From: a phage
Strand: one strand, 5' to 3'
DNA: 64,000 nucleotides
Sequence record: PZ296772.1
Position 1 is the stretch's first letter. The number at the start of each line of letters is the position of its first letter. The notes under the pieces are model-generated. The model was not told the DNA's origin. It saw only the letters and a program-made list of their open reading frames with translations, and did not search any database. Shown here one piece after another: positions 580 to 56,994 of the stretch. A program made the translations under genes and the position numbers.

Positions 580-628
580 GTTTACTTCTCCTCTAGTTGT
601 GTTACTATAGACATGTCAACTAGAGGAG
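580..628 (+). promoter_or_regulatory. early promoter-like cassette inside inverted repeat
   Basis: GTTTAC, 17-nt spacer, TACTAT; flanked by 12-bp inverted repeat ctcctctagttg/caactagaggag that includes the regB RBS. Confidence 0.5.
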
Positions 629-636
629 AAATCAAA

Positions 637-1095
637 ATGACTATCAATTCAGACGTTTTTATCCGCCGTAATAAACTCCGTCGAATCTTTGAAACGGAGT
701 TCCGCAAAATAAATGCCGGTATAAAAGATGCTGCAAAGTCTCTTGGGCTACCCGGCTTTCATATCAAGTATTCTCAACATCTCTTAGATCGTGCCATCCA
801 GAGAGAAATAGATGAGAATTACGTTTTTGAATTATTTCGTAAAGTAAAAAATCATGTTAAAGAAGTTGCAGAATTTTTATCAATGCCGGCACGTCCAGAT
901 GTTGATGAAGATTTTGTCGAAGGTGTCGAATATCGCCCGGGCCGTTTAGAAATAACTGATGGAAATCTTTGGTTAGGACTTACAGTTTGTCGCGAAAATC
1001 CAGCGTTCAAAATGAAGACTCTTCAATGCAGAATGGCTATTATTAACAGTAAACGACTACCAGGAAAAGCTTCTAAAGCAGTGATTAAAATCTAG
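637..1095 (+). CDS. regB: RegB sequence-specific endoribonuclease
   Basis: Start moved to ATG after GAGGAG RBS; ~153 aa; strong recalled similarity to T4 RegB (FIRRNKLRR, HLKYSQHLLDRAIQREIDE, RPGRLEITDGNLWLG, QCRMAIINS.RLPGKASKAVIK). Confidence 0.85.
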   Translation: MTINSDVFIRRNKLRRIFETEFRKINAGIKDAAKSLGLPGFHIKYSQHLLDRAIQREIDENYVFELFRKVKNHVKEVAEFLSMPARPDVDEDFVEGVEYRPGRLEITDGNLWLGLTVCRENPAFKMKTLQCRMAIINSKRLPGKASKAVIKI

Positions 1096-1103
1096 AGGTA
1101 AAC

Positions 1104-1646
1104 ATGAGAAAAGCACTACTCGCTGGTCTATTTGCTCTTTCATTATCAGCACATAGCTCCGAGCATACTTTTAGTAATGTCCAACTCGATAACTTGAATT
1201 ATGCTTATCAGTTTGGGGAGCAGTTTTCTAAGGATGGAAAATTTAAAACGCATGAAAATATGCATAAGAAAGGACTTGGATACATAATGGCCGCAATACT
1301 ATGGCAGGAATCATCTGCTGGTATTAATCTTAAAGATAAGAAAGGTCACCATGCGTATGGAATGTTCCAAAACTATCTACCAACAATGAGGGCAAGAATT
1401 AACCAGCTTGGTTATAATATGACTGATGCCCAAATTAAGAAAATGCTATCTAAGCGGTCTAATTCAACCAGATGGGCTTATATCGAATTTTCTTATTGGT
1501 TAAATATACATAACGGGGATATAAGAAAAGCTATATCCTCATACAATGCGGGATGGAAGACAAGTGCTGGAAGTAAATATGCTTCTGAAGTCCTAGAAAA
1601 GGCTAATTACCTTAAATCAAATAAACTACTGGAAATAAAAGAATGA
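1104..1646 (+). CDS. secreted lytic transglycosylase-like protein
   Basis: N-terminal signal peptide (MRKALLAGLFALSLSAHS); lysozyme-like/SLT motifs WQESS, YGMFQ, SYNAG. Confidence 0.5.
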   Translation: MRKALLAGLFALSLSAHSSEHTFSNVQLDNLNYAYQFGEQFSKDGKFKTHENMHKKGLGYIMAAILWQESSAGINLKDKKGHHAYGMFQNYLPTMRARINQLGYNMTDAQIKKMLSKRSNSTRWAYIEFSYWLNIHNGDIRKAISSYNAGWKTSAGSKYASEVLEKANYLKSNKLLEIKE

Positions 1647-1990
1647 CCAAAATGTTGGCTTTAATAGTTGGCTTGGTTTCATTTAACGCTCTTGCTAATA
1701 CTACATATACTGATGTAACGGAGTATACAAACAGAACGGCGTCTGATTATTGTGGTAAAAGTCAAGAGTGTAAAGTAGATTTTTCACAAAAATTGTTATA
1801 TGCGTATAAAGACGGAGAAAAAGATGGGGCGTCTAGTAGGTTCAAGGCGTCTACCTTAATTAAACGATATCATAAAAAATGGCAAATATTAGAATGCTCG
1901 GTGGCGGAACCTAAAGATAAGGCAGCATGCAATTCTATGGTAGACCGCCTAGTTGACTCTTATACTAGAGGACTTGCAGCAAGTGATTAA
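1643..1990 (+). CDS. secreted hypothetical protein
   Basis: Signal peptide MTKMLALIVGLVSFNALA; 115 aa; position matches T4 vs region (name not asserted). Confidence 0.45.
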   Translation: MTKMLALIVGLVSFNALANTTYTDVTEYTNRTASDYCGKSQECKVDFSQKLLYAYKDGEKDGASSRFKASTLIKRYHKKWQILECSVAEPKDKAACNSMVDRLVDSYTRGLAASD

Positions 1991-2450
1991 AAACTATATC
2001 AAGGGCGATATTGTCGCCCTGTTTTCTAAAGGTAATAATATTGCTCATGGGTGTAATTGTTTTCATACAATGGGCGCCGGTGTAGCAGGACAATTAGCAA
2101 AGGCTTATCCAAAAATTCTGGAAGCCGATAAACTTCAAACTGTATATGGAGATGAGTCTAAACTCGGGACTTATTCAGTTTATGAAAAATATTTTAAGAC
2201 CCATAAAGCTTATTGCTTTAATCTTTATACACAGTTTGAGCCGGGACCTAATTTTGAGTGCTCTGCTTTAATGAATTGTATAATAGAATTAAATGAATTC
2301 GGAAAGAATAAGATAACAAAGCCTGTAATTTATATGCCAAGAATTGGTGCAGGTATCGGTGGTGGAAACTGGGATGTCATCGAAGAGATTTTAGATACAT
2401 ATTCCACTAAACTAGAAATTGTGATTGTTGATTGGGAACCATTGTTATGA
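1983..2450 (+). CDS. macro domain protein (ADP-ribose binding/hydrolase-like); start uncertain (GTG 1983 or TTG 1953)
   Basis: Macro-domain signature GDIVALFSKGNNIAHGCNCFHTMGAGVAGQLAKAYP (cf. GDIT..DAIVNAAN..GGGVAGAI) and PRIGAGIGGGNWDVI. Confidence 0.5.
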   Translation: MIKNYIKGDIVALFSKGNNIAHGCNCFHTMGAGVAGQLAKAYPKILEADKLQTVYGDESKLGTYSVYEKYFKTHKAYCFNLYTQFEPGPNFECSALMNCIIELNEFGKNKITKPVIYMPRIGAGIGGGNWDVIEEILDTYSTKLEIVIVDWEPLL

Positions 2451-2659
2451 ATATACACTATCCACATCCATATGACCCAAAGAATAAGACAGTAATTATT
2501 CGTCAATGGGAACGCATTTGTCGTACTAAATGTCCAATTAATAGTCCACATGATGTAGATAAAGACTACATCGGAACATTCGTTGAATATACCTTTATTG
2601 ATAAGAAAGGCCGTAAACAACATGTAGAAGAATATTGCTTAAAGGTGACATGGCTATGA
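2432..2659 (+). CDS. hypothetical protein
   Basis: 75-aa ORF, start overlaps upstream stop. Confidence 0.4.
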   Translation: MGTIVMNIHYPHPYDPKNKTVIIRQWERICRTKCPINSPHDVDKDYIGTFVEYTFIDKKGRKQHVEEYCLKVTWL

Positions 2660-4187: not shown

Positions 4188-4219
4188 TCAAAGCCCCTTC
4201 CGAAAGGTTGGGGCTTTTT
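4185..4219 (+). terminator. rho-independent terminator (copy 1 of 35-bp direct repeat)
   Basis: Stem aagcccc/ggggctt, 12-nt loop, T5 run; identical sequence recurs at 4808..4842. Confidence 0.6.
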
Positions 4220-4810: not shown

Positions 4811-4842
4811 TCAAAGCCCCTTCCGAAAGGTTGGGGCTTTTT
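4808..4842 (+). terminator. rho-independent terminator (copy 2 of 35-bp direct repeat)
   Basis: Same hairpin and T-run as 4185..4219. Confidence 0.6.
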
Positions 4843-4853: not shown

Positions 4854-4905
4854 GTTTACTTCTCCTCAGGTTGTGTTATAGTAGACCTTACTTACTAGAG
4901 GAGAA
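4854..4905 (+). promoter_or_regulatory. early promoter-like cassette
   Basis: GTTTAC, 17 nt, TATAGT; flanking tctcctc/gaggaga inverted repeat. Confidence 0.5.
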
Positions 4906-4909
4906 CGTT

Positions 4910-5089
4910 ATGTCACGTAAAGAAAAAATTTCTAAGTTAATGTTTTTGATTGAAGAGTATGCTAACGCTGTATCTGATTGGGAAAATGCCCATGGGTGTG
5001 AAGACGGTGATATCGACATTAACAGAGCTATGAAAAAGATGGCTGATACGCACACCGAATTGCAAATGTATGTTAACGAGATTATGTGA
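4910..5089 (+). CDS. hypothetical protein
   Basis: Start moved to ATG after GAGGAG RBS; 59 aa. Confidence 0.45.
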   Translation: MSRKEKISKLMFLIEEYANAVSDWENAHGCEDGDIDINRAMKKMADTHTELQMYVNEIM

Positions 5090-5096: not shown

Positions 5097-5303
5097 ATGC
5101 TTTACGATTATACTGGAAAATCTGAAGACGGTGTACTTGAACTTTTACCTGAAAGCGCTGAAGATGATGATACGGTGGTGATGTTTTGTAAAAATGGTCC
5201 TGGGGATAAGGGATGGATTTATCTTCGTCAAGAAAATGACTTAATTGTTTTGGACCCTAAACAAGTTGAAGAACTTTATCAACATTTAAAACACAATCGG
5301 TAG
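5097..5303 (+). CDS. hypothetical acidic protein
   Basis: Start at internal ATG with GAGGA RBS. Confidence 0.45.
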   Translation: MLYDYTGKSEDGVLELLPESAEDDDTVVMFCKNGPGDKGWIYLRQENDLIVLDPKQVEELYQHLKHNR

Positions 5304-5341
5304 TTTACATCTTGGTAGGACTGTGTTATAGTAGTCCTACC
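5303..5341 (+). promoter_or_regulatory. early promoter-like cassette inside inverted repeat
   Basis: GTTTAC ... gtgTTATAGT flanked by perfect 9-bp inverted repeat ggtaggact/agtcctacc. Confidence 0.5.
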
Positions 5342-5469
5342 AAAAACAAATGGAGAACAAAATGAAACTTTTGCTTATCGCTTATGTTGTAGTACAATAC
5401 AATTATCCAATGTTTACTTATAACATGGTAAACGGCATAGTGAATCTTATTGAAGCGAGTATGGTAAAA

Positions 5470-7696: not shown

Positions 7697-7733
7697 GTGT
7701 ACATGCTTTTAGGATATGTTATTATAGACCTAT
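7697..7733 (+). promoter_or_regulatory. early promoter-like
   Basis: GTGTAC ... gtTATTATagacctat, same -10 context as other cassettes. Confidence 0.4.
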
Positions 7734-7742
7734 CGAAACGAA

Positions 7743-8744
7743 ATGAGTAAATTGGAGAATAAAATGTTCAACGTTCAAATCAAAAAAGGTATCTATCGTA
7801 ATAACGAAATCTCCGGTTCTTATGTTGCCACAAAGACCTGGTTCCCGGCAAAGCTTAATCCTGAATGTTCCCACTTAGGTGACGGTAAAATTTTCGTTAT
7901 GATTGATGGTTCTGAACGTGGAGTATGGGTCTTCAAATCAGATATCGTAATGGAAGGAGCTGAGACATCACCAGTTGCAGTTGTTGAAAGCACTGAAGAT
8001 ATGAAAACTCGTATCAACAAACGCTTTAAAGTAATGAACATGATGACGAATGGCATTATCGATGGCAAAATTCGTTCACTCATTATTTCAGGTGCAGCCG
8101 GTATTGGTAAGACGTATTCTCTGGATAGAGCGCTTAATAATGCTAATGATAACGGTTTCATCAAATACAAAAGCATTAATGGTAAAATCTCAGGTATTGG
8201 CCTTTACGAACAACTTTGGCTCAACCGTGATGCAGACAGCGTTCTCTTAATCGACGACGTTGACGTATTCTCGGATATGGATATCTTGAACCTTCTTAAA
8301 GCAGCATTAGATACTGGTGATAAACGCAAAGTTTGCTGGAGCACTGCATCATCTTATCTTGATGATAAGGGTATTGATAAAGAATTTGAGTTTGAAGGTA
8401 CTATCGTTTTCATTACAAACGTTGATATCGATAAAGAGTTAGAACGTGGTTCGAAACTTGCTCCACACCTTCAAGCTTTAGTATCTCGTTCAGTGTATCT
8501 TGACCTTGGAGTACACTCTAATGAAGAGATTATGGTTCGAGTTGAAGATGTAATATTATCTACTGACATGATGCAGAAACGTGGTCTGACGGATGCAGAA
8601 ACGTATAAAGCATTGTCCTGGATGAAGGCTAACATATCTCGTCTTCGCAATGTGTCATTACGTACGGCTCTTTATGTAGCAGATTTTATTTCAACTGATA
8701 AAGATGGTTGGGAGGAAATCTCTGAAGTAACTTTACTGAAATAA
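7743..8744 (+). CDS. AAA+/P-loop ATPase
   Basis: Walker A ISGAAGIGKTYSL and Walker B VLLIDDVD. Confidence 0.55.
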   Translation: MSKLENKMFNVQIKKGIYRNNEISGSYVATKTWFPAKLNPECSHLGDGKIFVMIDGSERGVWVFKSDIVMEGAETSPVAVVESTEDMKTRINKRFKVMNMMTNGIIDGKIRSLIISGAAGIGKTYSLDRALNNANDNGFIKYKSINGKISGIGLYEQLWLNRDADSVLLIDDVDVFSDMDILNLLKAALDTGDKRKVCWSTASSYLDDKGIDKEFEFEGTIVFITNVDIDKELERGSKLAPHLQALVSRSVYLDLGVHSNEEIMVRVEDVILSTDMMQKRGLTDAETYKALSWMKANISRLRNVSLRTALYVADFISTDKDGWEEISEVTLLK

Positions 8745-9172: not shown

Positions 9173-9208
9173 GTTTACAAGGTCTATGATTATGTTATTA
9201 TAGACCTA
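9173..9208 (+). promoter_or_regulatory. early promoter-like cassette inside inverted repeat
   Basis: GTTTAC, 17 nt, TATTAT; aggtctat/atagacct inverted repeat. Confidence 0.5.
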
Positions 9209-9228
9209 TCAACTACTGGAGGTAAAAC

Positions 9229-9756
9229 ATGAACGCTAAAGATATTTTCAACCTGGTAAATTATAACGACGGTAAATTTAAATCTGAAGCACAAAGCAAG
9301 TTCTTTAATGACGTTGCTTATGGTAACGAGATTACCGTGGACGGAGGTCAGATTTTCAAATCTCGCTGGAATTGGATTGTTATCATCGATTCGGTTGGAA
9401 TTGTGGAAGTCTACAAAAACACTAACAAAAAACGTACATTATTCTGGTCTCGTGAAACTAACGAGCAGTACAAAAAGGATAAAGCATCTCGTTTATCCAA
9501 AGTAACCCAGGAAGATATCGAGTTTATCAAGAAAGATATCGAGATGTACGAAAATTTAATCGCTGAAGACCAGGCAGTACTCGATAAGTTTGATGAAATT
9601 AAAGCTTCTCGTGAAATCCCTGACTTCATGAAAGAAACAGTAAACGAACGATACGCTCTCACTTCAGAACGTATTGCAAACTATACAAAACAGAAAGCAG
9701 AACGTATTAGTACTCTTCGGAAATTTGAAGAACGTTTAAAGTCGGTTCACGCATAA
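9229..9756 (+). CDS. hypothetical protein
   Basis: 175 aa, RBS GGAGG. Confidence 0.5.
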   Translation: MNAKDIFNLVNYNDGKFKSEAQSKFFNDVAYGNEITVDGGQIFKSRWNWIVIIDSVGIVEVYKNTNKKRTLFWSRETNEQYKKDKASRLSKVTQEDIEFIKKDIEMYENLIAEDQAVLDKFDEIKASREIPDFMKETVNERYALTSERIANYTKQKAERISTLRKFEERLKSVHA

Positions 9757-9818: not shown

Positions 9819-10814
9819 ATGAGCATTACATCTGATGCGGTAAAACATGAAATTAACGGTTTATGTGCTTCACAGATTAAAGTGTGGTTTAAAGACCATA
9901 ACGATCGCAGAGCACTTAATTATGAGCAAATTGCTATCCAAGTTCATCAATTACTGACAAGTAAATTTGATTTTCATATGCCGTCTGAAATCTATACTAA
10001 TCTGCCGCGAGCACTTATTAAAGCGTGTAAAGGTTATGGAAAATCAATGGCTGACGGAATATTCAGCGCGCTGAATAAACTTAACGTTCTGTCGATGATT
10101 AACTCTAACAACATCCTGCGTAATCTAGGACGTACTGATTTGTTCGGTCGTGAACAGTGTAAAATGCCTTTGAAATGGATTGTTGCCCATCTTAACGAGA
10201 ACCAAACACGTTTTATGGCTGTAACAGCACGTTTACAAATGGGCCTAGATCGTCAGATGAACTTTAAAACTCATCCACGTTATTCAGGTTCAACAAACTT
10301 TTATAAATGTGAGCTTCAAAAGGTTGGTGGCAAAACTGTCTTAGTAGTTCGTGTAACGTTTGAAGGACGTCGTCAAGGATATTTTGACATAATCGGCTCT
10401 GGACTTAAACATTGTGGATTTATCGACGAAGTTGATATCAAGCGAGACGGCATTGGATACCGTATTGGGTATGTTTGTACTCTTAAAGAAGAGATTTCAG
10501 GACCAGCACCAGGACTAAAAGACGTTAGATATAAAGACGAGCTCGTTGAAGAAATAAAAGAAGTTGAATATGATATCAACCAAGAAGATGCTCTTAAAGA
10601 CCTTATTGATGAACTGAACCAAGACGTTATTCCGGTTCAGAAATTTGAATCAAAACATGCTGAGCAAATCAAATACTTTGAAGCTTTGATTAACGAACTT
10701 AATGTAACTATTCAACAGACTGATGATGAAATCTCACGATTAGCGGGCTTAAACGGTAAAAATAAAACAGAACGAGCTAATCTTATTCAAGTAGTAAAAC
10801 TTCTTAAGGAATGA
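9819..10814 (+). CDS. hypothetical protein with C-terminal coiled-coil
   Basis: 331 aa; heptad-like C-terminal ~70 aa. Confidence 0.5.
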   Translation: MSITSDAVKHEINGLCASQIKVWFKDHNDRRALNYEQIAIQVHQLLTSKFDFHMPSEIYTNLPRALIKACKGYGKSMADGIFSALNKLNVLSMINSNNILRNLGRTDLFGREQCKMPLKWIVAHLNENQTRFMAVTARLQMGLDRQMNFKTHPRYSGSTNFYKCELQKVGGKTVLVVRVTFEGRRQGYFDIIGSGLKHCGFIDEVDIKRDGIGYRIGYVCTLKEEISGPAPGLKDVRYKDELVEEIKEVEYDINQEDALKDLIDELNQDVIPVQKFESKHAEQIKYFEALINELNVTIQQTDDEISRLAGLNGKNKTERANLIQVVKLLKE

Positions 10815-10843
10815 TGTACAACCAAGGATGGTTGGAGTATAAT
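10815..10843 (+). promoter_or_regulatory. promoter with CAACCA-N4-TGGTTG palindrome (family member 1)
   Basis: tGTACAaccaaggatggttggagTATAAT; palindrome in the spacer. Confidence 0.5.
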
Positions 10844-10869
10844 AAATTTTTCAACATGAGGAATATAAA

Positions 10870-11829
10870 ATGGCTTTTATTACACGTAGAGAACTTATCA
10901 AAGAATTTACCTCGAACGCATATACTCCAGGACCTAATCCTATCCGTATGCCTGTAAAGACTCCTGAAGAGATTGAGGAAATCTGTTCATATTATGGGAT
11001 TAATTCTCGTATGTTTACTCAATTTGAATGCGTTACTAACACACCCGTTAAAGAGTTCATTAAAAATGGTGAGTTCAGCCGTTTATTAGCCAAACAGAAA
11101 CTTCGTAATTTTTGTATCGGCGGCTGCGGACAATATTTTGCTAAACAGTTCCGAAATAACCTTAACAATCTGATGGCCATTGCTTCTCGTATTCGTCCTC
11201 AAGCAATTAACATGAAACATTTGAAATATACTTACGATAAGTTAGAAATCATGGTTATCAGTGAGAATGAGTTCACTCTTACATATAAACCTAAGAATGA
11301 TAACGTTGCTCGTGTATTCCACCAAGCGCTAGAAGTGTTAGGCGATAATATCCATGAGATTAAAGCAATTTATTCTCGTGAGCTTAATATTATCGACCCT
11401 ATCAAGAATAAGGGCCATATCGCTATCCAGGCTCGTGTATCTATTGGTAAAAAGGTTCCTGCGCCATGGTGGCACAAAGACTCTGAATACTATCAAAATC
11501 TTAAAAAGGAAAATGCATTGTTTGAAGGCAATATTACAGCAACACCAGTCGGTAATGCAGAGGTTCTAGGCGCATATTCTCCAGCACAATCTGGTATGTT
11601 TAAAGGTTTGCCAAATGTGTGCAAACTGTCGGCAGTAAAACTAAATGTTTCTAATGACCTTCTTCCGGCAGAAGATTATCATTACAACCAAATCAAGGCT
11701 ACTGTAGACCAACTGTCCGTTGAACTTGACAAAGCACAAGCTAAGCTTCGTGATGCTCAAAGTGTTGTAACGAATCTCCAGTTGCAGTATTCTAAACTTT
11801 TTAATGCAATGAATGCATTAAAATCATAA
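10870..11829 (+). CDS. hypothetical protein with C-terminal coiled-coil
   Basis: 319 aa; C-terminal LDKAQAKLRDAQSVVTNLQLQYSKL. Confidence 0.5.
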   Translation: MAFITRRELIKEFTSNAYTPGPNPIRMPVKTPEEIEEICSYYGINSRMFTQFECVTNTPVKEFIKNGEFSRLLAKQKLRNFCIGGCGQYFAKQFRNNLNNLMAIASRIRPQAINMKHLKYTYDKLEIMVISENEFTLTYKPKNDNVARVFHQALEVLGDNIHEIKAIYSRELNIIDPIKNKGHIAIQARVSIGKKVPAPWWHKDSEYYQNLKKENALFEGNITATPVGNAEVLGAYSPAQSGMFKGLPNVCKLSAVKLNVSNDLLPAEDYHYNQIKATVDQLSVELDKAQAKLRDAQSVVTNLQLQYSKLFNAMNALKS

Positions 11830-11833: not shown

Positions 11834-11863
11834 GTTTACAACCAAGGATGGTTGGAATATAAT
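11834..11863 (+). promoter_or_regulatory. promoter with CAACCA-N4-TGGTTG palindrome (family member 2)
   Basis: GTTTACaaccaaggatggttggaaTATAAT. Confidence 0.5.
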
Positions 11864-11891
11864 GAATCTATCTTAACGAGAGGAAAATATT

Positions 11892-12842
11892 ATGACACGT
11901 TCACATTACATTGAATACTTTGCCGGGCTTATCGCTAACGTTCATGCCCAGCGCGCTTCTGGTGCACTAGGATTTGATGTTCCACACCGAGATGTAGTAA
12001 GTGGTATTCTTCGTGATTTTGGTACATACACAGGTCAAGAAAATCATATCTGTAAAGATACTCAAAATGCATATTCTCATTCATTAGGGACACTGCTTCA
12101 ATGGTTCAAACGTTCTCGTTTATTATCTTCTACTGTAGCTCGTGATAACATCAAAAACTTTATGAAGCCGAGCTTTATTAAATCTGTGACATCTAAAACC
12201 GATTTGGTTGAATTCACTATTGTTAATGATGTTAAAAAGACTCATTTGGCTGATTGGTTATCTACCATTCCTGAAACTAAATTTGCTGATAAATTTGCTT
12301 GTGAATTCAATAACCAAGTGAATATGCTTTTTAAACATTCTCGTAAATTATTCACGGGCGGTGATGGTCGTACAAATAAAGTTCATGTTAAAGATTGGGT
12401 TACTGCAGTATTCAAACCAACCGGTAATGGTAACGCATCATTATCAATTGATATCCAGGTTCCTTATTACTACTCACGTAATCTCGGTACCATGAAAGCT
12501 GAAGAAATTAATAAGCATAACAAAACCGTTCGTTCGTTGTCTTATAAACTTATTACATTGTTAGAGACTATGGATGTTGTTGAAACGTTCGACGAGTCCG
12601 AAGATAACGGTTCAATGTTATACAGTTCTCGCACCCGAATTAAGCTGAGGAACCCTAACGAGTATAAACTTAAGACTATTAAAGAACCTAAAGTAGAAAA
12701 AGTTGACAACTTGAGCGAAGAACGTGAGTACCTCAAATCTCGTCTGAAAGAAGTCGAAGCCCAGATTAAAGAACAGACTAAATCGTTAAAAGCTCTGAAT
12801 GCGAAAGCGGATGGTTTACGAAATGCCATTGAGGTGTTATAA
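11892..12842 (+). CDS. hypothetical protein with C-terminal coiled-coil
   Basis: 316 aa; C-terminal EEREYLKSRLKEVEAQIKEQTKSLKALNAKADGLRNAIEVL. Confidence 0.5.
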   Translation: MTRSHYIEYFAGLIANVHAQRASGALGFDVPHRDVVSGILRDFGTYTGQENHICKDTQNAYSHSLGTLLQWFKRSRLLSSTVARDNIKNFMKPSFIKSVTSKTDLVEFTIVNDVKKTHLADWLSTIPETKFADKFACEFNNQVNMLFKHSRKLFTGGDGRTNKVHVKDWVTAVFKPTGNGNASLSIDIQVPYYYSRNLGTMKAEEINKHNKTVRSLSYKLITLLETMDVVETFDESEDNGSMLYSSRTRIKLRNPNEYKLKTIKEPKVEKVDNLSEEREYLKSRLKEVEAQIKEQTKSLKALNAKADGLRNAIEVL

Positions 12843-13147
12843 TGAATCTACGTCTTCTAGAGGATATTGATATGAGCACTAATCATGGCTTAGTTAAGTT
12901 TATTGATGATAGTTCAAAGATTGAATTTGTTCAGCGAGATAAAATCCTCGGTGAAGAAGAGTTCGTTCCTCCGGCATGGAACGAAATAATGAAAATGGTT
13001 GAACGACGTGAAAATGCTGCCAAATCGGCAGCAAAACATCCATGCCCAGAATGTGGAACTATCCAGGTCCAACTGGTTAACTGGACCACTGATAACTTGA
13101 AATTGAAATGCCGTAAATGCTTCCACAAATTTGAGAGAACAATATAA
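12842..13147 (+). CDS. zinc-ribbon protein
   Basis: C-terminal CPECG...(17)...CRKC. Confidence 0.45.
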   Translation: MNLRLLEDIDMSTNHGLVKFIDDSSKIEFVQRDKILGEEEFVPPAWNEIMKMVERRENAAKSAAKHPCPECGTIQVQLVNWTTDNLKLKCRKCFHKFERTI

Positions 13148-43482: not shown

Positions 43483-43532
43483 TTTACTTCTCCAGTAGTT
43501 GTGTTATTATAGACCCTATCAACTACTGGAGA
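43483..43532 (+). promoter_or_regulatory. early promoter-like cassette inside inverted repeat
   Basis: GTTTAC, 17 nt, TATTAT; perfect 12-bp inverted repeat ctccagtagttg/caactactggag includes the RBS. Confidence 0.5.
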
Positions 43533-43537
43533 ACAAA

Positions 43538-43855
43538 ATGAAAACCATCGATTGTAAAGCAGAATTTAAGATTTTTTATCACGGTTCAAGTAGTTCAGCT
43601 AACATCAAAAACATGCTTTGTCCTCCTGAAGAAACAGGAGTTCTGTCTGAAACAGGACGTAAGAAAAACTTGGATCGTGTATTCTTTACTGAAGATATCG
43701 GTTTAGCAAAGATTTATGCAGGACGAGCAGCACGCTCTTATGGAGGTGAACCACGTCTCTATCGAGTAATTTCTCCGGTAGATGTAGTTCAAATGAATGA
43801 TACTAAAGGCGCTACAGTTTATCACGCTGAATGGGCATTTTGCGAGGAAATATGA
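43538..43855 (+). CDS. hypothetical protein with possible minimal ADP-ribosyltransferase-like (Arr-like) motifs
   Basis: Start moved to internal ATG; FYHGSSS, VFFTEDIGLAKIYAG and RLYRVISP loosely resemble recalled Arr-type H-Y-E transferases. Confidence 0.4.
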   Translation: MKTIDCKAEFKIFYHGSSSSANIKNMLCPPEETGVLSETGRKKNLDRVFFTEDIGLAKIYAGRAARSYGGEPRLYRVISPVDVVQMNDTKGATVYHAEWAFCEEI

Positions 43856-44259: not shown

Positions 44260-44289
44260 GTTTACAAGCACCACATACTGTGTTACTAT
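44260..44289 (+). promoter_or_regulatory. early promoter-like
   Basis: GTTTAC, 18 nt, TACTAT. Confidence 0.45.
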
Positions 44290-44317
44290 CTTTCTATCAA
44301 CTACAGAGGAAATTGAA

Positions 44318-44686
44318 ATGAAAAAATTAATCGCTTTAGCAATGGTATTTGGATTAACCGGATGTGGTGCCCATGGCTTTATTCCTAATAACGTTGGCCA
44401 ACTGATTTACAATCCGAATGTTAAACAATATGAACAACCTAAAGTTGAAGTGGAAGACCCGGTTACTGTAGGTAATCGAATGATTCAAGCTGATGCTCAT
44501 GCTCAACGTTATCGTGATTCTGATACTGTAGCTATGTCAAAAGAACAACGTGTTAAAGAACATTGCTTACAGGCTACTGAAATCGCATTCATTCGCTATG
44601 TTGAAACAACTGGTAAAGAGCCTACCCAGAAACAAATCGCAAATAACTACGTCCAGTGTATTGAACGTTTAAACAAATTTAATTAA
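44318..44686 (+). CDS. lipoprotein
   Basis: Signal peptide plus lipobox MVFGLTGC. Confidence 0.5.
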   Translation: MKKLIALAMVFGLTGCGAHGFIPNNVGQLIYNPNVKQYEQPKVEVEDPVTVGNRMIQADAHAQRYRDSDTVAMSKEQRVKEHCLQATEIAFIRYVETTGKEPTQKQIANNYVQCIERLNKFN

Positions 44687-44689: not shown

Positions 44690-44720
44690 GTTTACACCAA
44701 AGTTAAAATAAGATACTATA
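44690..44720 (+). promoter_or_regulatory. early promoter-like
   Basis: GTTTAC, about 19 nt, TACTAT. Confidence 0.4.
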
Positions 44721-44747
44721 AACATAACAAATCAAGAGGAAATTAAC

Positions 44748-44996
44748 ATGGAATTATTCGTGGCTAGTTCAGTAGCAGTTTTAATCGCAGGTATTGGTTC
44801 AATCATCATTTACATGTTGCCTTGGGTAATCGCACTTATTCGTGGCACAAAAAGCACAACAGCAATCTTCTTTGTATCTTTACTCTTTAACTGGACGATG
44901 GTTGGTTGGATTGGAACTTTAATTTGGTCTATCGTTGCCGAAAAGAAATCTGCTCAGCAGCCTCAACAAGTAATTATTATTCGCGAAAAAGAATAA
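44748..44996 (+). CDS. membrane protein
   Basis: Two transmembrane segments. Confidence 0.45.
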   Translation: MELFVASSVAVLIAGIGSIIIYMLPWVIALIRGTKSTTAIFFVSLLFNWTMVGWIGTLIWSIVAEKKSAQQPQQVIIIREKE

Positions 44997-45000: not shown

Positions 45001-45035
45001 GTTTACATTATAGATGGACTATAGTATAGTAGTCC
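45001..45035 (+). promoter_or_regulatory. early promoter-like cassette inside inverted repeat
   Basis: GTTTAC, 18 nt, TATAGT; ggacta/tagtcc inverted repeat. Confidence 0.45.
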
Positions 45036-45059
45036 TATCAAATCAACTAAGGAGTTAAA

Positions 45060-45353
45060 ATGAAAAAGTTATCATTGGCAGCAATCTTACTCGCAGTATC
45101 ATGTGCACCAGCTCCAGTTACGGCAGGTTATGATAAAGACCTCTGTGAGTGGTCAATGACTGCAAATCAAGAAGATGTTGAACAACAAATCTTCTCTGAT
45201 ATCATGAACATCACTAAACGAGACCGTCCTAATATGGTTAATAAAGTTGTTGAACAACTTAAGTCTGGTGGTATCATGCAGTACAATTATGTTTTGTATT
45301 GTGACCCTAATTTCGATAACAAAGATATCGTAACCGAAATCACAGGTGAATAA
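45060..45353 (+). CDS. sp: Spackle periplasmic protein
   Basis: 97 aa with signal peptide; AGYDKDLCEWSMTA, SGG.MQYNYVLYCD match recalled T4 Sp. Confidence 0.7.
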   Translation: MKKLSLAAILLAVSCAPAPVTAGYDKDLCEWSMTANQEDVEQQIFSDIMNITKRDRPNMVNKVVEQLKSGGIMQYNYVLYCDPNFDNKDIVTEITGE

Positions 45354-48881: not shown

Positions 48882-48911
48882 GTTTACAACCACTAAAAAC
48901 TGTGTTAAGAT
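48882..48911 (+). promoter_or_regulatory. early promoter-like
   Basis: GTTTAC, 18 nt, TAAGAT. Confidence 0.45.
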
Positions 48912-48939
48912 ATTTTTACTTACTCAAGAGGAGAACAAT

Positions 48940-49167
48940 ATGTTAAATCGTTGGATTAAACCTAATAACACATTAGGTGCTTTGATTGCTCAAGAAGTTT
49001 CATTGAAATACGGCCTTGGATATTATGATGATGTAGTCGTACACTCGTTCATGATGGATGGTGAAAACGTCAAATTTAATGCCGAAATCCGTTGGGATGA
49101 CGGTGGTGTTCGTTTTGTTCGAGGAACAATTAATGCTTACGATGCTGAAGAAGTTGTTTGCTGTTAA
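48940..49167 (+). CDS. hypothetical protein
   Basis: Start moved to ATG after AAGAGGAG; 75 aa. Confidence 0.4.
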   Translation: MLNRWIKPNNTLGALIAQEVSLKYGLGYYDDVVVHSFMMDGENVKFNAEIRWDDGGVRFVRGTINAYDAEEVVCC

Positions 49168-50362: not shown

Positions 50363-50391
50363 GTTTACATTCCCTCCTCTCGTGTTATGAT
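50363..50391 (+). promoter_or_regulatory. early promoter-like
   Basis: GTTTAC, 17 nt, TATGAT. Confidence 0.45.
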
Positions 50392-50418
50392 AGGCTTATC
50401 TTTAAATGGAGGTCTATC

Positions 50419-51000
50419 ATGACATGTCAATCTGAACTTCAAGAACATGAATACCTAACAAATCTGATTGATAGCAAATTCACCCGCCAAGAACAAAACA
50501 TTCTCTGGGCCTGCACCGATTCTAAGGAAGACCCGGATTTCCACTATGAATTAGACCATCTTGTTCGTAAGCATATGACTTCTACAGTGCCAGTAGAACT
50601 CTACCGTGGTGTAACTCCAGAAGAAGTAGAACGTCTTTCCCTTCTTTCTGTGGGATGCCATTGGTCTCCTGGACGAGTAACATCGTTCACAACTGATTTC
50701 AGTACAGCTCGTCAATTCTCCGGGAGATGGGAATATCAGACGTACACTATTCTTAGTCTCAGGAATGCTCCATTCATTTTTGATTACTACCAAAACATGG
50801 TTAACATTGTACTTGCCGGAAAGAACCCTAAGCATGTTATGGAAGAAACGCGTGTTGACGTCCTAGATATGATTGAATCTGAACAAGAATACATGGTCTC
50901 AGGTATCTCTAGATTTGAGATTGTGGAAATTGAAGAGTTAGAGTATGACCCTTTGCCTCGAGTATACAAAATCATTCACTTAAAGATGTTGAATTTTTAG
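50419..51000 (+). CDS. modA: ADP-ribosyltransferase, ModA/ModB type (first of pair)
   Basis: R-S-E motifs: LYRGV, SFTTDF, EQEYMVSG; paralogous to next ORF; symbol by recalled T4 order. Confidence 0.55.
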   Translation: MTCQSELQEHEYLTNLIDSKFTRQEQNILWACTDSKEDPDFHYELDHLVRKHMTSTVPVELYRGVTPEEVERLSLLSVGCHWSPGRVTSFTTDFSTARQFSGRWEYQTYTILSLRNAPFIFDYYQNMVNIVLAGKNPKHVMEETRVDVLDMIESEQEYMVSGISRFEIVEIEELEYDPLPRVYKIIHLKMLNF

Positions 51001-51030
51001 TGTACAAACTCTACCTACGATGATACTATA
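51001..51030 (+). promoter_or_regulatory. early promoter-like
   Basis: TGTACA, 18 nt, TACTAT. Confidence 0.4.
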
Positions 51031-51057
51031 CTTTTATCAACCAGAGGAGAAACCTAA

Positions 51058-51666
51058 ATGTTTATGCCGTATAACGAGTGTGAAATTGAAGAAATGGTTC
51101 GTCGTGCTCAAAACCCCGAATATCAAGATGTATTGCAGTACGAAATTGATAGTCAATTCAGCGACATTGAACAAAGTGTACTGTGGCAGTGTATGGAAAA
51201 CAAGCCAGACTGTATTCAACAGGAGTTAAGTTCAATCGTTCGTAGAAATTGGACGTCTTCTGTTCCTGAGACAATGTATCGTGGAATCTCTAAGAAAACT
51301 ATGGCCACACTCGATGATAAAGGCATTGGTAGTATTATTAAATTTGACAGAGTAATGAGCTTTAGTCCAGTGTTTGGTGTAGCACGTAACTTCGCTTCAT
51401 ATAATTTTTATGGAACATTTAATATGTTCTGCGTCAAAGATGCACCATTTGCTTTCAACTTCCGTGAACATATGCTTAATATGATTCTGGCTGCACCATC
51501 TTGTGAGTTCAATGGAGCTTTCCCTGAAGCGACAAGACGGTCTAATGCTAGACTTATATCTGACGAATGTGAATTTATGCTCCCTATAGGGACTACACTG
51601 CGTGTAGATTCTATTATTCAAGATGGACGTTATACAATCTGGAATCTGTCTATTGTTGGTTACTGA
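51058..51666 (+). CDS. modB: ADP-ribosyltransferase, ModA/ModB type (second of pair)
   Basis: R-S-E motifs: MYRGI, SFSPVF, ECEFMLPIG; symbol by recalled T4 order. Confidence 0.55.
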   Translation: MFMPYNECEIEEMVRRAQNPEYQDVLQYEIDSQFSDIEQSVLWQCMENKPDCIQQELSSIVRRNWTSSVPETMYRGISKKTMATLDDKGIGSIIKFDRVMSFSPVFGVARNFASYNFYGTFNMFCVKDAPFAFNFREHMLNMILAAPSCEFNGAFPEATRRSNARLISDECEFMLPIGTTLRVDSIIQDGRYTIWNLSIVGY

Positions 51667-51740: not shown

Positions 51741-51769
51741 GTGTACACTACCTGAGGGCATGATATTAT
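51741..51769 (+). promoter_or_regulatory. early promoter-like
   Basis: GTGTAC, 17 nt, TATTAT. Confidence 0.4.
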
Positions 51770-51818
51770 AGACCTATCAGCTAAATGACCTAACGTCCGT
51801 AAGACAGAGGAAAATATT

Positions 51819-52565
51819 ATGTTATCAAATAATAAAATTAACAAAATCAATCGTCGTCTTGACCACACCAGAGCTTCTGCGAAGAGACGCTCTAAGGATT
51901 TTAACTTAGATTTTAATTACCTTAAAAACATTCTTGATCAAAAGGTCTGCGCTTACTCAGGTGAATCTTTCAATAACTCTGTTGAAGGTGAGAAATTATC
52001 CTTAGAACGTTTTAATAATGATATAGGCTACATTAAAGGTAATGTTATCCCAGTTAAGAAAAAATATAACACGGCTCGTTCTGATTTAACATTAGAAGAA
52101 CTTATTGAGAAACGTGATGCCATTGCAAGACGTATTGCTAATCCTTCTGCCCGTAAAGTAGAGAAACTTAATCTTGACGAGAAGAAATGGGCCCAAATTA
52201 AAAAGGTTTATGGTACTATTTTAAAAATCCGAGCAAAACGTGAAAACCGTGTTAAGCATATGGCGAACATGATGAAAAATCAACCTTTATCTAACGAATC
52301 TAAACTTAGAATTGTTGCTTTGAAAGCACGCATTAATGGCTCACATCAAGCAGAAGGCCATGAACTTACTAAACTCAACGTTCTTCTTAAAGGCTCTGAC
52401 TGGAAAACTAAAACTAAATTAACTGACGCCGAATCGCTTTTCGATACATATGATAAAGTTATCCAAGGTCTGCAACGTTTTGAAAAGATCGGTTTCATTG
52501 GTAAATTAAAATTGAAACGTGGCCTACCACTTAGCGCATCATTATTCCAACTGATTAAAGGTTAA
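51819..52565 (+). CDS. hypothetical protein (position of T4 srd)
   Basis: 248 aa between the mod pair and dda; name by synteny only. Confidence 0.4.
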   Translation: MLSNNKINKINRRLDHTRASAKRRSKDFNLDFNYLKNILDQKVCAYSGESFNNSVEGEKLSLERFNNDIGYIKGNVIPVKKKYNTARSDLTLEELIEKRDAIARRIANPSARKVEKLNLDEKKWAQIKKVYGTILKIRAKRENRVKHMANMMKNQPLSNESKLRIVALKARINGSHQAEGHELTKLNVLLKGSDWKTKTKLTDAESLFDTYDKVIQGLQRFEKIGFIGKLKLKRGLPLSASLFQLIKG

Positions 52566-54876: not shown

Positions 54877-54882
54877 AATCAG

Positions 54883-54911
54883 TTTACAACCAAGGACGGT
54901 TGGAGTATAAT
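54883..54911 (+). promoter_or_regulatory. promoter with CAACCA-N4-CGGTTG palindrome (family member 3)
   Basis: GTTTACaaccaaggacggttggagTATAAT. Confidence 0.5.
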
Positions 54912-54941
54912 CTTTCTATCTTAACCAAACGGGAAACAATT

Positions 54942-55436
54942 ATGAATATCAATACTACGTCTACTTACATCCTGAAAGACGAAAAACAAATCAACTGGTA
55001 CGGTGCTTCAGTGCGAGCTTATGAAAAGTTTTGTGAAATTTTAGGTGCCACTCAAGGTAATAGTTTCACTATTGTTAACTTCATTAAACAAGTTGAAGGC
55101 CCTTGGTTATTCTTAGAAATTAAAAATTCATACGGTACAATTTCTACTACTGCCATCCCAAGCACCGACTTTGAACTGTTGATTGAAGAAGCACCTGTTA
55201 AAGATGGTCTCCACTTTGATATGGATATCGTTTGTATGTACGGTACTCTGATTAAGCCTATTGAGCCTACTGATTTATTGTGTAAATATGTTTCAATTCG
55301 ACGCCCATTCGATGGTCCAGTAAATGGATGGGTAACTGACCAGTGGATTGAAGATGGGGTTGAACTTCTGAACGTTGTTCATGCCGGTGATTTTAGTGTG
55401 GTTCCACGTAGTGCAGTAGTTAATATTCTAAATTAA
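54942..55436 (+). CDS. paralog-family protein 1 (shared C-terminal domain)
   Basis: Start moved to ATG; C-terminal TDQWIEDGVELLNVVHAGDFSVVP shared with 55498 and 55963. Confidence 0.5.
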   Translation: MNINTTSTYILKDEKQINWYGASVRAYEKFCEILGATQGNSFTIVNFIKQVEGPWLFLEIKNSYGTISTTAIPSTDFELLIEEAPVKDGLHFDMDIVCMYGTLIKPIEPTDLLCKYVSIRRPFDGPVNGWVTDQWIEDGVELLNVVHAGDFSVVPRSAVVNILN

Positions 55437-55438: not shown

Positions 55439-55468
55439 TTGTACATCCAAGGATGGATGGAGTATAAT
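55439..55468 (+). promoter_or_regulatory. promoter with degenerate CATCCA-N4-TGGATG palindrome (family member 4)
   Basis: tGTACAtccaaggatggatggagTATAAT. Confidence 0.5.
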
Positions 55469-55497
55469 GAATTCAATTTAACAAAGAGAGAAAAATT

Positions 55498-55953
55498 ATG
55501 ATTACTATTGGTGAAATTAAGCGTGTATCAACTGCATCCCGGTCTAAAGCCGCAGGTCGTCTGGTTGAAGTGGTAGGACTTCGCACAAATGGCATGGGAC
55601 GCATTAAAGAAGTTAAAGTTCGAATCATTCCTAGTTTTGGACGTCAGGATACTCAGCACGCTTACGTAAGTCCTAAATTCTTGGAAACTCCTGTGAGCGC
55701 TCATTTTGCTTCTACTGAACCTAATGCACAGTTCAAATGGGCCTTGTGTAAAGGTGTTGAATTCCAGACTGATAAAGAATTTGACTTCATCGATGAATAC
55801 GGTTATCCAAGCAAAACTGATACTATGTGTGGCTTCATTAGTGACCAATGGGTTGAAGATGGTGAAAAGTTATACAATATCGTATTCTTAGGTGACTTCC
55901 GAGTTGTTAAAGAATCTGAAATCACTCGTTATGTGTCTCCTCGTAAAGCTTAA
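55498..55953 (+). CDS. paralog-family protein 2 (possible MotB-like by position)
   Basis: 151 aa; SRSKAAGRLVEV and CGFISDQWVEDGEKLYNIVFLGDF shared with neighbour; MotB assignment is recollection only. Confidence 0.5.
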   Translation: MITIGEIKRVSTASRSKAAGRLVEVVGLRTNGMGRIKEVKVRIIPSFGRQDTQHAYVSPKFLETPVSAHFASTEPNAQFKWALCKGVEFQTDKEFDFIDEYGYPSKTDTMCGFISDQWVEDGEKLYNIVFLGDFRVVKESEITRYVSPRKA

Positions 55954-55962
55954 GGAATTATT

Positions 55963-56382
55963 ATGAATATTGTAAATCTCTCTACAGGTGATTACGTATA
56001 TGTATCTGTTGCTTCTCGCTCTAAAGTTGCCGGGAAGTTGGTTGAAGTTCTTTCTGTGAGTGATCCGGTTTTTGGTCGTAACCAAGTTAAAGTTCGTGAC
56101 GCCGATGGTAACATTGGTTACGTTAAAAGCCAATTTATTGAACCAGAAGAAAAAGCGTTCAAATGGAAACTGGGCAGATCAGTTTTAGTTGTAAAAGACT
56201 ACGAGTTCACCATTGCCGCTGCGACAGATGGAACACCGTGGACAACGAATCAAGTTGCTGGTTTTATTTCGGACCAATGGGTAGAAGATGGTGTTAAGCT
56301 TTATAACATTGTTTTCGCTGGGCAGTTCATGGTAGTTCCTGAGTTCCAAATCAAAAAATATTGTCCAGCATCTTTTGCATAA
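55963..56382 (+). CDS. paralog-family protein 3
   Basis: 139 aa; SRSKVAGKLVEV and AGFISDQWVEDGVKLYNIVFAGQF, clear tandem paralog of 55498. Confidence 0.5.
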   Translation: MNIVNLSTGDYVYVSVASRSKVAGKLVEVLSVSDPVFGRNQVKVRDADGNIGYVKSQFIEPEEKAFKWKLGRSVLVVKDYEFTIAAATDGTPWTTNQVAGFISDQWVEDGVKLYNIVFAGQFMVVPEFQIKKYCPASFA

Positions 56383-56386
56383 AGTT

Positions 56387-56415
56387 GTTTACTTCTCCTC
56401 CGGTTTTGATATTAT
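56387..56415 (+). promoter_or_regulatory. early promoter-like cassette
   Basis: GTTTAC, 17 nt, TATTAT; tctcctccggtt/aaccagaggaga near-inverted repeat. Confidence 0.45.
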
Positions 56416-56441
56416 AACCATATCAACCAGAGGAGAATAAT

Positions 56442-56966
56442 ATGTTAGTTTACCGCGTAGAACGTAGTTTTTGTACTCAACGTGAATCATTACCAGGAAT
56501 TGCTATCGAAGATGGTAAAGCCGTCAGAATTTGGGAAACCTCTTGGAATAAAGAACCTCGCTCACCATACGGTTGGTCAGGCACCGACAACTCTGAAGAA
56601 ACATGGGAGTTCCTTGATAAACATGGAATACTCTCAGGTAACTTCTACCATCATGGCGACAACTATAATGTCCCTAATCGTCCTACAGTAAATGAAGACA
56701 AACTCCTTGAACAAAATATCTTAAGATACCATAGAATTGAGCACACATTTGAATTGAACGAAGATTGGGCTCAAGGGTTCTATTTTGGATTTGAAAGTGT
56801 TGACGCGGTTTATGCATGGTTTGATGACCAGGTGGATGTTGAACTCTTGAAAGCTAAAGGATACTACATCGCTGTCTATGAAGCACCCGATTTCATCCTC
56901 GGAAGTTGTCAATTAATGTTTAGACGTTCATTGGCAGAACAAGTTGATTTTATTTTGCTAAAATGA
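56442..56966 (+). CDS. hypothetical protein
   Basis: 174 aa, RBS GAGGAG. Confidence 0.5.
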   Translation: MLVYRVERSFCTQRESLPGIAIEDGKAVRIWETSWNKEPRSPYGWSGTDNSEETWEFLDKHGILSGNFYHHGDNYNVPNRPTVNEDKLLEQNILRYHRIEHTFELNEDWAQGFYFGFESVDAVYAWFDDQVDVELLKAKGYYIAVYEAPDFILGSCQLMFRRSLAEQVDFILLK

Positions 56967-56994
56967 TGTACAACAACTATGGTCTATGATACTA
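56967..56994 (+). promoter_or_regulatory. early promoter-like cassette
   Basis: TGTACA ... TATGATACTAT; ggtctat/atagacc inverted repeat. Confidence 0.4.

Follow-up and report, generated by a model that had tools for sequence, protein, structure and literature searches.

Many genes in the phage DNA of sequence record PZ296772.1 are preceded by a compact early-type promoter; in about half of these promoters the -10 hexamer lies inside an inverted repeat, and in several cases the downstream arm of the repeat is the Shine-Dalgarno (SD) sequence of the next gene. What are these units, and is it as DNA or as RNA that their repeats act? We analyzed a stretch of 64,000 nucleotides (nt) of this record, referred to throughout as the window, which megablast places in the RB69-like genus Mosigvirus (over 12 kb, 99.8% identity to Escherichia phage PTK and 99.1% to phage AlbertHofmann). 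We consider it probable, though well short of certain, that the units are early cassettes of the promoter-early stem-loop (PeSL) type, that their hairpins form only in RNA reading through from upstream, that a subset of these hairpins masks the SD of the next gene, and that the cassettes have a role in recombination.

Early promoter cassettes in the window

A strict scan for GTTTAC (at most one mismatch), a spacer of 16-19 nt and a TATAAT-like hexamer returned 21 matches on the + strand and 8 on the - strand, with 13 matches intergenic. A relaxed scan, which combined the promoter motif with a required SD and open reading frame (ORF) and was then curated, gave 24 early-type cassettes. All lie on the + strand, which carries nearly all genes of the window, and they run from 580 to 56966; we refer to each by its first coordinate (Table 1). 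The initial annotation of the window had described at least 15 intergenic regions with a GTTTAC or TGTACA-type -35, a 17-18 nt spacer and a -10 enclosed by an inverted repeat. The span and the promoter design apply to all 24 cassettes, and stems at the -10 are present in about 13-14 places, counting imperfect stems and the hairpin of one middle promoter, so that the stated minimum of 15 is too high.

Each cassette measures about 60 bp and consists of a GTTTAC or TGTAC -35, a spacer of 17-18 nt, a TATAAT-like -10, a leader, an SD and the ATG. The distance from -10 to ATG is 26-30 nt in 21 of the 24, every cassette has an SD, and the common leader sequence is CTATCAAC...GAGGAGAA. A TGn motif stands before the -10 in most cassettes that have no spacer mini-hairpin (see below). 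The upstream stop codon overlaps the -35 or lies within 5 nt of it in 17/24 cassettes, so that there the cassette is the entire intergenic region. The 25 nt upstream of the cassettes are 73% A+T, compared to 63% for the window and 66% for intergenic sequence. Eleven cassettes are located in 1-22 kb and 13 in 43-57 kb; none of the 24 falls in the 21-kb core replication block at 22-43 kb. A repeat finder, run independently, returned the cassettes as the largest direct-repeat families in 43000-57100. The downstream genes that were tested mostly have no Pfam family, or a DUF only.

A generic sigma-70 scan based on TTGACA found 55 sites where 73.7 were expected in shuffled sequence. As it yields no excess, the T4-type -35 is needed for detection. 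The cassettes are presumably active as promoters, by homology to T4 (regB early promoter). Rfam covariance models gave no match at the gathering threshold in the entire window.

Complementarity around the -10 hexamer

For each cassette, the sequence from the end of the -35 to the ATG was folded and compared with 300 dinucleotide shuffles. Twelve of the 24 cassettes fold better than their shuffles at p<0.05, where 1.2 would be expected, and the mean z is -1.72. In 9/24 cassettes the -10 lies within an inverted repeat with at least 7 bp of perfect Watson-Crick pairing, compared to a shuffle mean of 0.91 and a maximum of 4 in 200 trials. When the spacer is folded with its own leader the energy is -9.75 kcal/mol, versus -7.42 kcal/mol with swapped leaders (permutation P=5e-5), a comparison that controls for composition and for motifs common to the cassettes. 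The inverted repeats reported in the initial annotation are beyond chance, but only in about half of the cassettes.

These tests bear directly on the view that the complementarity is a by-product of AT-rich repeated promoters, through chance or shared ancestry. While half of the cassettes are without a significant stem, and the cassettes are paralogous and so not independent of one another, such a by-product would account neither for the two excesses over shuffled sequence and the preference for cognate over swapped pairs nor for compensatory changes between paralogs and across genera (see below). Already disfavored by the shuffle, swap and covariation tests, it is in our estimation extremely improbable.

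Stems that enclose the -10 have energies of -13 to -24 kcal/mol and loops of 6-30 nt, and most stems of the window are perfect Watson-Crick helices. The cassettes can be sorted by type of stem. In the SD-pairing type (580, 4854, 43482, 56387, 43048, 20083 and, weakly, 51000), an anti-SD (TTCTCCTC-like) opens the spacer and pairs with the GAGGAGAA SD. At 50363 the -10 itself is the 5' arm, the hexamer pairing with the segment from SD to AUG. In the -10-hugging type (5303, 9173, 21211, 45001 and 56966), the repeat ends near the start site. In the spacer mini-hairpin type (10814, 11834, 54882 and 55439), 5 bp and an AGGA loop lie entirely within the spacer. Seven of the 24 cassettes in the folding test have no stem. 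The initial annotation had noted that several downstream arms include the ribosome-binding site (RBS) of the next gene, which is correct for 580, 4854, 20083, 43048, 43482 and 56387 and, in another form, for 50363. Among its examples, the repeats at 5314..5341 and 21219..21250 are exact and that given as 43491..43532 lies one position away, at 43490..43531. The hairpin placed at 27211..27230 is present (z -5.4) but occupies 27214..27236 and belongs to a MotA-box middle promoter at 27204-27236. No significant stems were found at the middle promoters 9760, 23975, 28612 and 37753 or in the soc late-promoter region.

The mini-hairpins form a family of their own, with members at 10820-10833, 11840-11853, 54888-54901 and 55445-55458, another at 9764-9777, and one at a T4 locus (approximately 12592-12605). 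The AGGA/AAGGA loop is kept while the 5-bp stem covaries (AACCA/TGGTT, ATCCA/TGGAT and, in T4, CCACA/TGTGG). Most copies have GGAG directly before the -10, and these promoters are without the TGn extended -10.

Conservation and covariation of the hairpins

The same folding preference is found in T4, where 8/15 early cassettes in two regions have p<0.05. T4 regB, nrdC.8 and motB.2 have the SD-pairing type, whereas dmd and motB have the -10-hugging type and modB has the -10/AUG type; orthologous genes have the same design with different arms. We retrieved sixteen regB loci via protein homology. Five lineages, T4 among them, have the regB leader hairpin, the most distant at 55% RegB identity; a regB locus of 40% identity has none. 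Throughout these leaders the SD/anti-SD core is constant, and the distal arms read TAGTTG/CAACTA, TTGACTG/CAGTTAA, TTTATG/CATAAA or TGTAAG/CTTACA. One lineage nests a second, -10-hugging helix.

Covariation was scored after the two arms of each hairpin had been aligned by their invariant CC/GG pair and linked through Ns, a hand-made register that leans towards structure; a plain MAFFT alignment of the regB leaders had put the 3' arms out of register and was dropped. Among 16 SD-pairing cassettes, 11/15 pairs have changes on both sides, and the covariation score is 0.373 compared to 0.143 ± 0.025 for shuffles (0/500 shuffles as high), with slid controls at 0.03-0.11. For the unselected regB-only set the score is 0.218 compared to 0.106 ± 0.022 (0/500 shuffles), with slid controls at 0.05-0.10. 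Individual substitutions agree in kind: cassettes 580 and 43482 differ at two compensatory pairs, one pair of cassette 5303 passes through G-C, G·U and A-U states among relatives, and cassette 21211 has two G·U-preserving changes in one relative (locus L008).

The covariation also bears on whether the repeats are DNA-level elements, such as an operator to which a dimeric protein binds or a target in cruciform or hairpin form, acting in early-promoter shut-off or for a recombination nuclease. The repeats do center on the -10, the window stems are mostly perfect Watson-Crick, early-promoter shut-off in T4 has been described as incompletely understood (PMC3014915, PMC2988021), and the authors who described PeSLs speculated on a DNA-binding protein at the stems. 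Nevertheless, the arms differ among cassettes and covary, so there is no shared operator sequence, and loops of 6-30 nt disfavor cruciform extrusion. Each T4 stem includes 2-3 G·U pairs, with the sense strand folding 3-11 kcal/mol better than the antisense strand, and several substitutions in relatives keep pairing only via G·U. We therefore give a DNA-level element very little credence. Folding of sense against antisense strands was also tried as a general means of telling RNA from DNA and was set aside, being neutral for the window, with a mild sense bias in unstructured cassettes too.

Accessibility of the SD in read-through and own-promoter RNA

The 5' arms of the stems lie in the spacer (or, at 50363, in the -10 itself), and the start site predicted from promoter geometry is about 7 nt past the -10, in the loop or the 3' arm. 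RNA made from the cassette's own promoter would therefore lack the 5' arm, and the stem would form only in RNA that reads through from upstream. In 17/24 cassettes no terminator lies between the two genes, so that read-through RNA must contain the stem. The coupling of RNA structure to transcription initiation proposed in the initial annotation would have to be recast accordingly, with the stems absent from the promoter's own transcript and any coupling confined to read-through RNA.

We calculated how often the SD core is unpaired in each of the two RNAs. For 580, 4854, 43482, 50363 and 56387, the probability is at most 0.05 in read-through RNA and 0.29-0.67 in the own-promoter transcript. Cassette 10814 likewise has an SD core that is unpaired at ≤0.05, through a different leader hairpin, and the remaining cassettes do not reach this degree of burial. 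As a control, gene 49, for which such masking is documented in T4 (PMC3014915), is recovered by the calculation too.

The gene 49 (endonuclease VII) hairpin of the window, at 15204-15228, buries the SD (z -4.3) and corresponds to the translational hairpin documented for gene 49 of T4.

These observations suggest the following model. Each unit takes up the gap from stop to start and combines AT-rich sequence with a predicted sigma-70 early promoter of T4 type, roughly 22 nt of leader and a strong SD. The spacer of about half of the units is complementary to sequence 3' of the -10, and in 6-8 cassettes (those of regB, the ModB-like gene, the motB.2-like gene and several ORFans) the 3' arm is a GGAG-type SD. 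Read-through RNA would then be closed to ribosomes and to RegB, and promoter-proximal immediate-early mRNA would be open to both. Where a -10-hugging stem stays off the SD, the read-through hairpin might act as a stabilizer or an attenuator. Extended to T4 and its relatives, the model becomes a filter on transcript origin: only mRNA from a gene's own immediate-early promoter would be translated and then inactivated by RegB, and read-through RNA, whether begun at early or at middle promoters further upstream, would be silent and RegB-resistant. We put this filter forward tentatively, as a plausible idea that we think somewhat less likely to be right than wrong. If it is true, potentially harmful early proteins (the RegB nuclease, the ADP-ribosylases ModA/ModB, motB.2 and several ORFan products) would be made only in the first minutes of infection, and the filter would contribute to explaining why early protein synthesis stops so abruptly and why many GGAG sites in longer transcripts resist RegB.

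Masking of the SD in read-through RNA could also serve translational coupling, if a ribosome at the upstream stop codon opened the base of the stem; translation of the downstream gene would then depend on that of the upstream gene and not be blocked. The position of the stop codon suits this arrangement, since in the 17 cassettes with the stop within 5 nt of the -35 the anti-SD is about 10-13 nt past the stop, and the anti-SD forms the base of the stem. Judged by spacing and by what is generally known of ribosome footprints, however, a ribosome terminating there would extend into a 13-14 bp stem by one base pair or so at most, and the stems that do not involve the SD are left unexplained. We regard coupling as unlikely.

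The stems in relation to terminators

In the original description of PeSLs, the stem-loop mostly lies between -35 and -10 or overlaps the -10, and was proposed to be a terminator or attenuator (PMC2839356). By this account the stems would stop transcription arriving from upstream and limit spill-over between adjacent early units, and one RB49/phi1 PeSL stem-loop placed before lacZ indeed cut expression like a strong terminator (PMC2839356). The stability of the stems in the window agrees with such a function, and the annotators of SA79RD called the hairpin orthologous to that of 56387 a rho-independent terminator. The -10-enclosing stems do not, however, fit an intrinsic (rho-independent) terminator. 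Their loops are long, their tails are A-rich or mixed with no U-tract behind any stem, and the list of terminator-like structures for 1-20000 contains none of them. The canonical terminators of the window, GC-rich TTCG-loop stems followed by T-runs, are separate structures, and those at 4813-4842 and 43023-43043 directly precede the stem cassettes 4854 and 43048, where a second terminator would be redundant. Termination also leaves unexplained an invariant SD/anti-SD core with a covarying remainder. We consider a terminator or attenuator function conceivable and the strongest of the alternatives, yet improbable.

The SA79RD hairpin (locus L005, 14773-14817, equivalent to window 56393-56437) ends in the SD of the next gene and is without a U-tract.

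Recombination between cassettes

Comparison of the window with eleven Mosigvirus-like loci identified 21 distinct indels or replacements, and 4/21 have both ends in two different cassettes, three of these with junction overlaps of 27-65 bp. Cassette 7697 is duplicated around an extra gene in two relatives (L010 and phage AV116, locus L011), with a 65-bp overlap at 7704-7768. AV116 is without 10844-11836 (cassettes 10814/11834, 27-bp overlap) and without 21219-21516, where the ends lie just behind the two -35 boxes of cassettes 21211/21511. G2285 and RPN187 are without 54949-55441 (cassettes 54882/55439, 64-bp overlap). Two junctions were checked base by base, and both are chimeric cassettes: one joins the left flank and GTTTAC of 54882 to the spacer and leader of 55439, and the other joins 10814 through GGAG to the leader of 11834. 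Being dispersed repeats, the cassettes thereby offer stretches of short homology at which recombination can insert or delete one gene at a time. The remaining sixteen indels have no relation to cassette pairs, apart from which a fifth event involves another repeat, the duplicated terminator copies on either side of the window-specific gene 4253-4810 (29-bp overlap). This gene, a DUF7338 member with 30-nt terminator repeats and a TATAAATA late-promoter motif upstream, is missing in five of five relatives compared, and looks like an insertion or deletion via recombination of the terminator copies.

Two other differences among the relatives concern single genes. A 282-bp gene (13813-14109; window 13790-14109) is missing in three relatives, with a 36-bp junction overlap in coding sequence and no cassette; short-homology recombination works outside cassettes too. 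The ModB-like gene is mostly deleted (50438-50875) in G2285 and phiC120, with a 9-bp overlap, and a short ORF is left behind an intact cassette.

Evidence against read-through hairpins and a recombination role

Several results weigh against the view that the cassettes carry read-through hairpins, mask SDs and recombine. Five strong stems leave the SD untouched, and seven cassettes are stemless. As a family, the SDs of the cassettes are no less accessible in read-through RNA than those of 62 other genes (p=0.19), and the gain in accessibility from long to short RNA is no larger than for those genes (p=0.24). We therefore rejected SD masking as a property of the whole family, and the filter idea covers at most a quarter of the cassettes. 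The SD-pairing cassettes 4854 and 43048 directly follow canonical terminators, which would limit read-through. The number of covarying pairs in the regB-only set is not significant (94/500), that test rests on about five lineages, and the arm alignment behind it was anchored by hand. The bias of sense over antisense folding, clear in T4, is absent in the stems of the window. Finally, 11/42 breakpoint ends (26%) are within 30 nt of cassettes; this exceeds the 7.7% of random positions but not the 39% of intergenic positions. Breakpoint proximity was therefore discarded as evidence of recombination, and only events with both ends in cassettes count. 

Relation to known systems

PeSLs have been published for RB49/phi1 (Arbiol et al. 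2010, PMC2839356) and for T4/PST and KVP40/nt-1 (Comeau et al. 2014, PMC4122927). As described, a PeSL is a repeated cassette in which AT-rich sequence and an early promoter are combined with a stem-loop, for which five positions are known, and with an SD and ATG; PeSLs cluster in hyperplastic regions beside ORFans, and recombination between copies shuffles genes (PMC2839356). Excised mini-circles count as a further trait of the class. The window cassettes are like those of RB49/phi1 in layout, in the SD and ATG at the 3' end, in their hyperplastic, ORFan-rich setting and in the gain and loss of genes by recombination. Their stems are different. RB49 PeSLs have near-consensus TTGACA/TATAAT promoters and compact GGGG-loop-CCCC stems, whereas the window cassettes have T4-type GTTTAC/TGTAC -35 boxes and, in half of them, longer and sequence-diverse stems with the entire -10 in the loop and a 3' arm that extends to the start region or the SD. 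Translation is nowhere mentioned in the 2010 paper (PMC2839356). With T4/PST the window shares the promoter type (TTTACW N17 TAYWAT) and the indels between close relatives (PMC4122927), and the middle-promoter versions (PmSL) of that study resemble window 27204-27236. The T4/PST stem-loops were placed just upstream of the promoter (PMC4122927), like the terminator-promoter pairs 4813/4854, 7651/7697, 43023/43048 and 48847/48882 of the window; the -10-enclosing stems, both of the window and of T4 itself, are not in that position. The assignment to PeSLs made in the initial annotation is supported, as promoter, SD/ATG end, AT-rich upstream sequence, stems, plastic regions, ORFans and recombination all match. 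The 2010 review of T4 genomes does not mention PeSLs.

The SD-masking subset has its closest parallel in the T4 genes e, soc, 49 and I-TevI, in which a late promoter is nested in an RBS-sequestering hairpin, and the long RNA is closed and the promoter-proximal RNA open (PMC3014915). In both, the promoter lies in the 5' strand or loop and the SD or AUG in the 3' strand. The nested promoters of the window are of the early sigma-70 type, whereas those of e, soc and 49 are late (TATAAATA), and the predicted effect is mirrored, with expression limited to the immediate-early period. The SD-masking cassettes would operate in the manner of the e/soc/49 family without belonging to it. Two T4 reviews, PMC3014915 among them, do not describe early promoters that are nested in SD hairpins, although older descriptions are possible; this subset is a little-described variant, and it is conserved in T4. 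The GGAG in the SD of regB is itself cut by RegB, and RNA structure protects GGAG from RegB. RegB targets are GGAG motifs in early SDs, most SD-pairing cassettes have GGAG SDs, and regB itself follows cassette 580. The proposed filter would fit these properties of RegB.

Promoter cassettes that double as recombination substrates would account for the exchange of accessory early genes among T4-type phages with regulation left intact, and the window adds the RB69-like lineage to the phages with PeSL-type recombination, with junctions at base level. Less expected is that some early promoters are nested in hairpins that would mask the RBS of the next gene, with covariation at regB extending to T4 and the design recurring at motB.2 and modB. 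If true, this would be a simple, built-in dependence of translation on the promoter from which an RNA originates. It could be tested directly in T4 and is relevant to two loose ends of T4 biology, the sharp shut-off of early proteins and the selectivity of RegB.

Table 1. Cassettes and associated features of the window. Paired values for the SD are the probabilities of being unpaired in read-through RNA and in the own-promoter transcript.
Feature	Coordinates	Strand	Details
Cassette, regB	580..639	+	SD-sequestering hairpin 586-630, 14-bp perfect inverted repeat TTCTCCTCTAGTTG/CAACTAGAGGAGAA; z -6.1; -10 603-608, predicted start ~615, ATG 637; SD 0.00 vs 0.42
Cassette	4854..4912	+	Anti-SD TTCTCCTC pairs with GAGGAGAA, hairpin 4860-4905; 8-bp inverted repeat, p 0.002; SD 0.00 vs 0.55; terminator 4813-4842 just upstream
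Cassette	5303..5364	+	-10-hugging hairpin 5312-5343 (TTGGTAGGACT/AGTCCTACCAA), SD outside; z -3.8
Cassette	7697..7766	+	GTGTAC -35; no significant stem (z 0.6); terminator 7651-7669 upstream
Cassette	9173..9231	+	-10-hugging hairpin 9180-9207 (AGGTCTAT/ATAGACCT); z -2.8
Cassette	10814..10872	+	Spacer mini-hairpin AACCA-AGGA-TGGTT 10820-10833, then GGAG, then -10; crossover partner 11834
Cassette	11834..11894	+	Spacer mini-hairpin 11840-11853; crossover partner 10814
Cassette copy	12814..12874	+	Within end of upstream gene; no stem; annotated start of next gene, 12842, overlaps -10
Cassette	20083..20142	+	Imperfect SD-pairing hairpin 20090-20132 (TCCTC.ATAG/CTAT.GAGGA); z -2.2; SD 0.18 vs 0.84
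Cassette	21211..21274	+	TGTAC -35; -10-hugging hairpin 21218-21251, 12-bp ACGATAGGAAGA/TCTTCCTATCGT; z -5.1; crossover partner 21511
Cassette	21511..21579	+	ATATAC -35; no significant stem
Cassette	43048..43109	+	Anti-SD TTCCTCT with AGAGGAA (43057-43100); z -2.2; inverted-repeat p 0.03; terminator 43023-43043 upstream
Cassette, paralog of 580	43482..43540	+	SD-sequestering hairpin 43488-43533, 14-bp TTCTCCAGTAGTTG/CAACTACTGGAGAA; z -5.8; SD 0.00 vs 0.67
Cassette	44260..44320	+	No stem; 203-bp window-specific gene ends 23 nt upstream
Cassette, imm	44690..44750	+	No stem (minimum free energy 0)
Cassette, sp (spackle)	45001..45062	+	Bulged -10-hugging hairpin 45013-45039; z -2.3
Cassette	48882..48942	+	No stem; terminator 48847-48872 upstream
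Cassette, ModB-like ADP-ribosylase	50363..50421	+	-10 hexamer and discriminator (from 50386) pair with SD..AUG (to 50421); z -2.7; SD 0.05 vs 0.29; T4 modB has same design
Cassette, ModA-like gene	51000..51060	+	Weak SD-pairing stem 51010-51050; p 0.047
Cassette, srd	51741..51821	+	Long leader; no significant stem
Cassette	54882..54944	+	Spacer mini-hairpin; crossover partner 55439
Cassette	55439..55500	+	Spacer mini-hairpin with compensatory change ATCCA-AGGA-TGGAT, 55445-55458
Cassette, motB.2-like gene	56387..56444	+	SD-sequestering hairpin 56393-56437, one C-A mismatch; z -5.3; SD 0.00 vs 0.46; in six relatives, perfect 13 bp in five and a G·U pair in the sixth
Cassette, cef	56966..57026	+	-10-hugging hairpin 56981-57000 (GGTCTAT/ATAGACC); z -2.4
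Middle promoter (MotA box)	27204..27236	+	GCTTTA 27204-27209, 12 nt, TATAAT; inverted repeat GATGTGGT/ACCACATC 27214-27236
Terminator (GC stem and T-run)	4190..4219	+	Directly repeated at 4813-4842; copies flank window-specific gene 4253-4810
Terminator, second copy	4813..4842	+	Directly before cassette 4854

Gene setting and other features

According to the annotation of relatives, the genes of the window are, in order, regB, vs, tk, rI, the nrdC region, pin, 49, nrdD, nrdG, 55, 47, 46, 45, 44, 62, regA, 43, arabinose genes, 42, uvsX, 40, 41, dmd, imm, sp, 61, 56, soc, mrh, modA/B, srd, dda, dexA, the motB region, cef, goF and 39. This order matches the early/replication arm of T4, in transcription order. 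Shigella phage JK45 (MK962757.1) carries a 23-kb region that is 96.3% identical to this Mosigvirus window (97% of the query), and its taxonomy line reads Tequatrovirus; either its genome is mosaic or the genus assignment is questionable.

The nrdD gene is split by an insert of about 1.05 kb (window 16240-17286), which is also in JK45 and T4 and is missing from five other close relatives. Its ORF at 16490-17260 encodes a GIY-YIG/NUMOD homing endonuclease of 256 amino acids, for which the JK45 annotation gives I-TevII. Rfam returned no match to a group I intron at the gathering threshold.

Three tandem genes in 9819-12842 encode proteins of 331, 319 and 316 amino acids; gene 9819-10814, the one of the three that was scanned, has no Pfam family. 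Their promoters are a MotA-box-like site at 9760 and the early cassettes 10814 and 11834, and each promoter region has a spacer mini-hairpin. The cassette copy 12814-12874 lies in the 3' end of gene 11892-12842, and a transcript from its promoter could encode only a form of 91 amino acids (start 12872) of the next gene's product, compared to the 101 amino acids annotated. One copy of the three tandem genes is gone in phage AV116 via cassette-to-cassette recombination.

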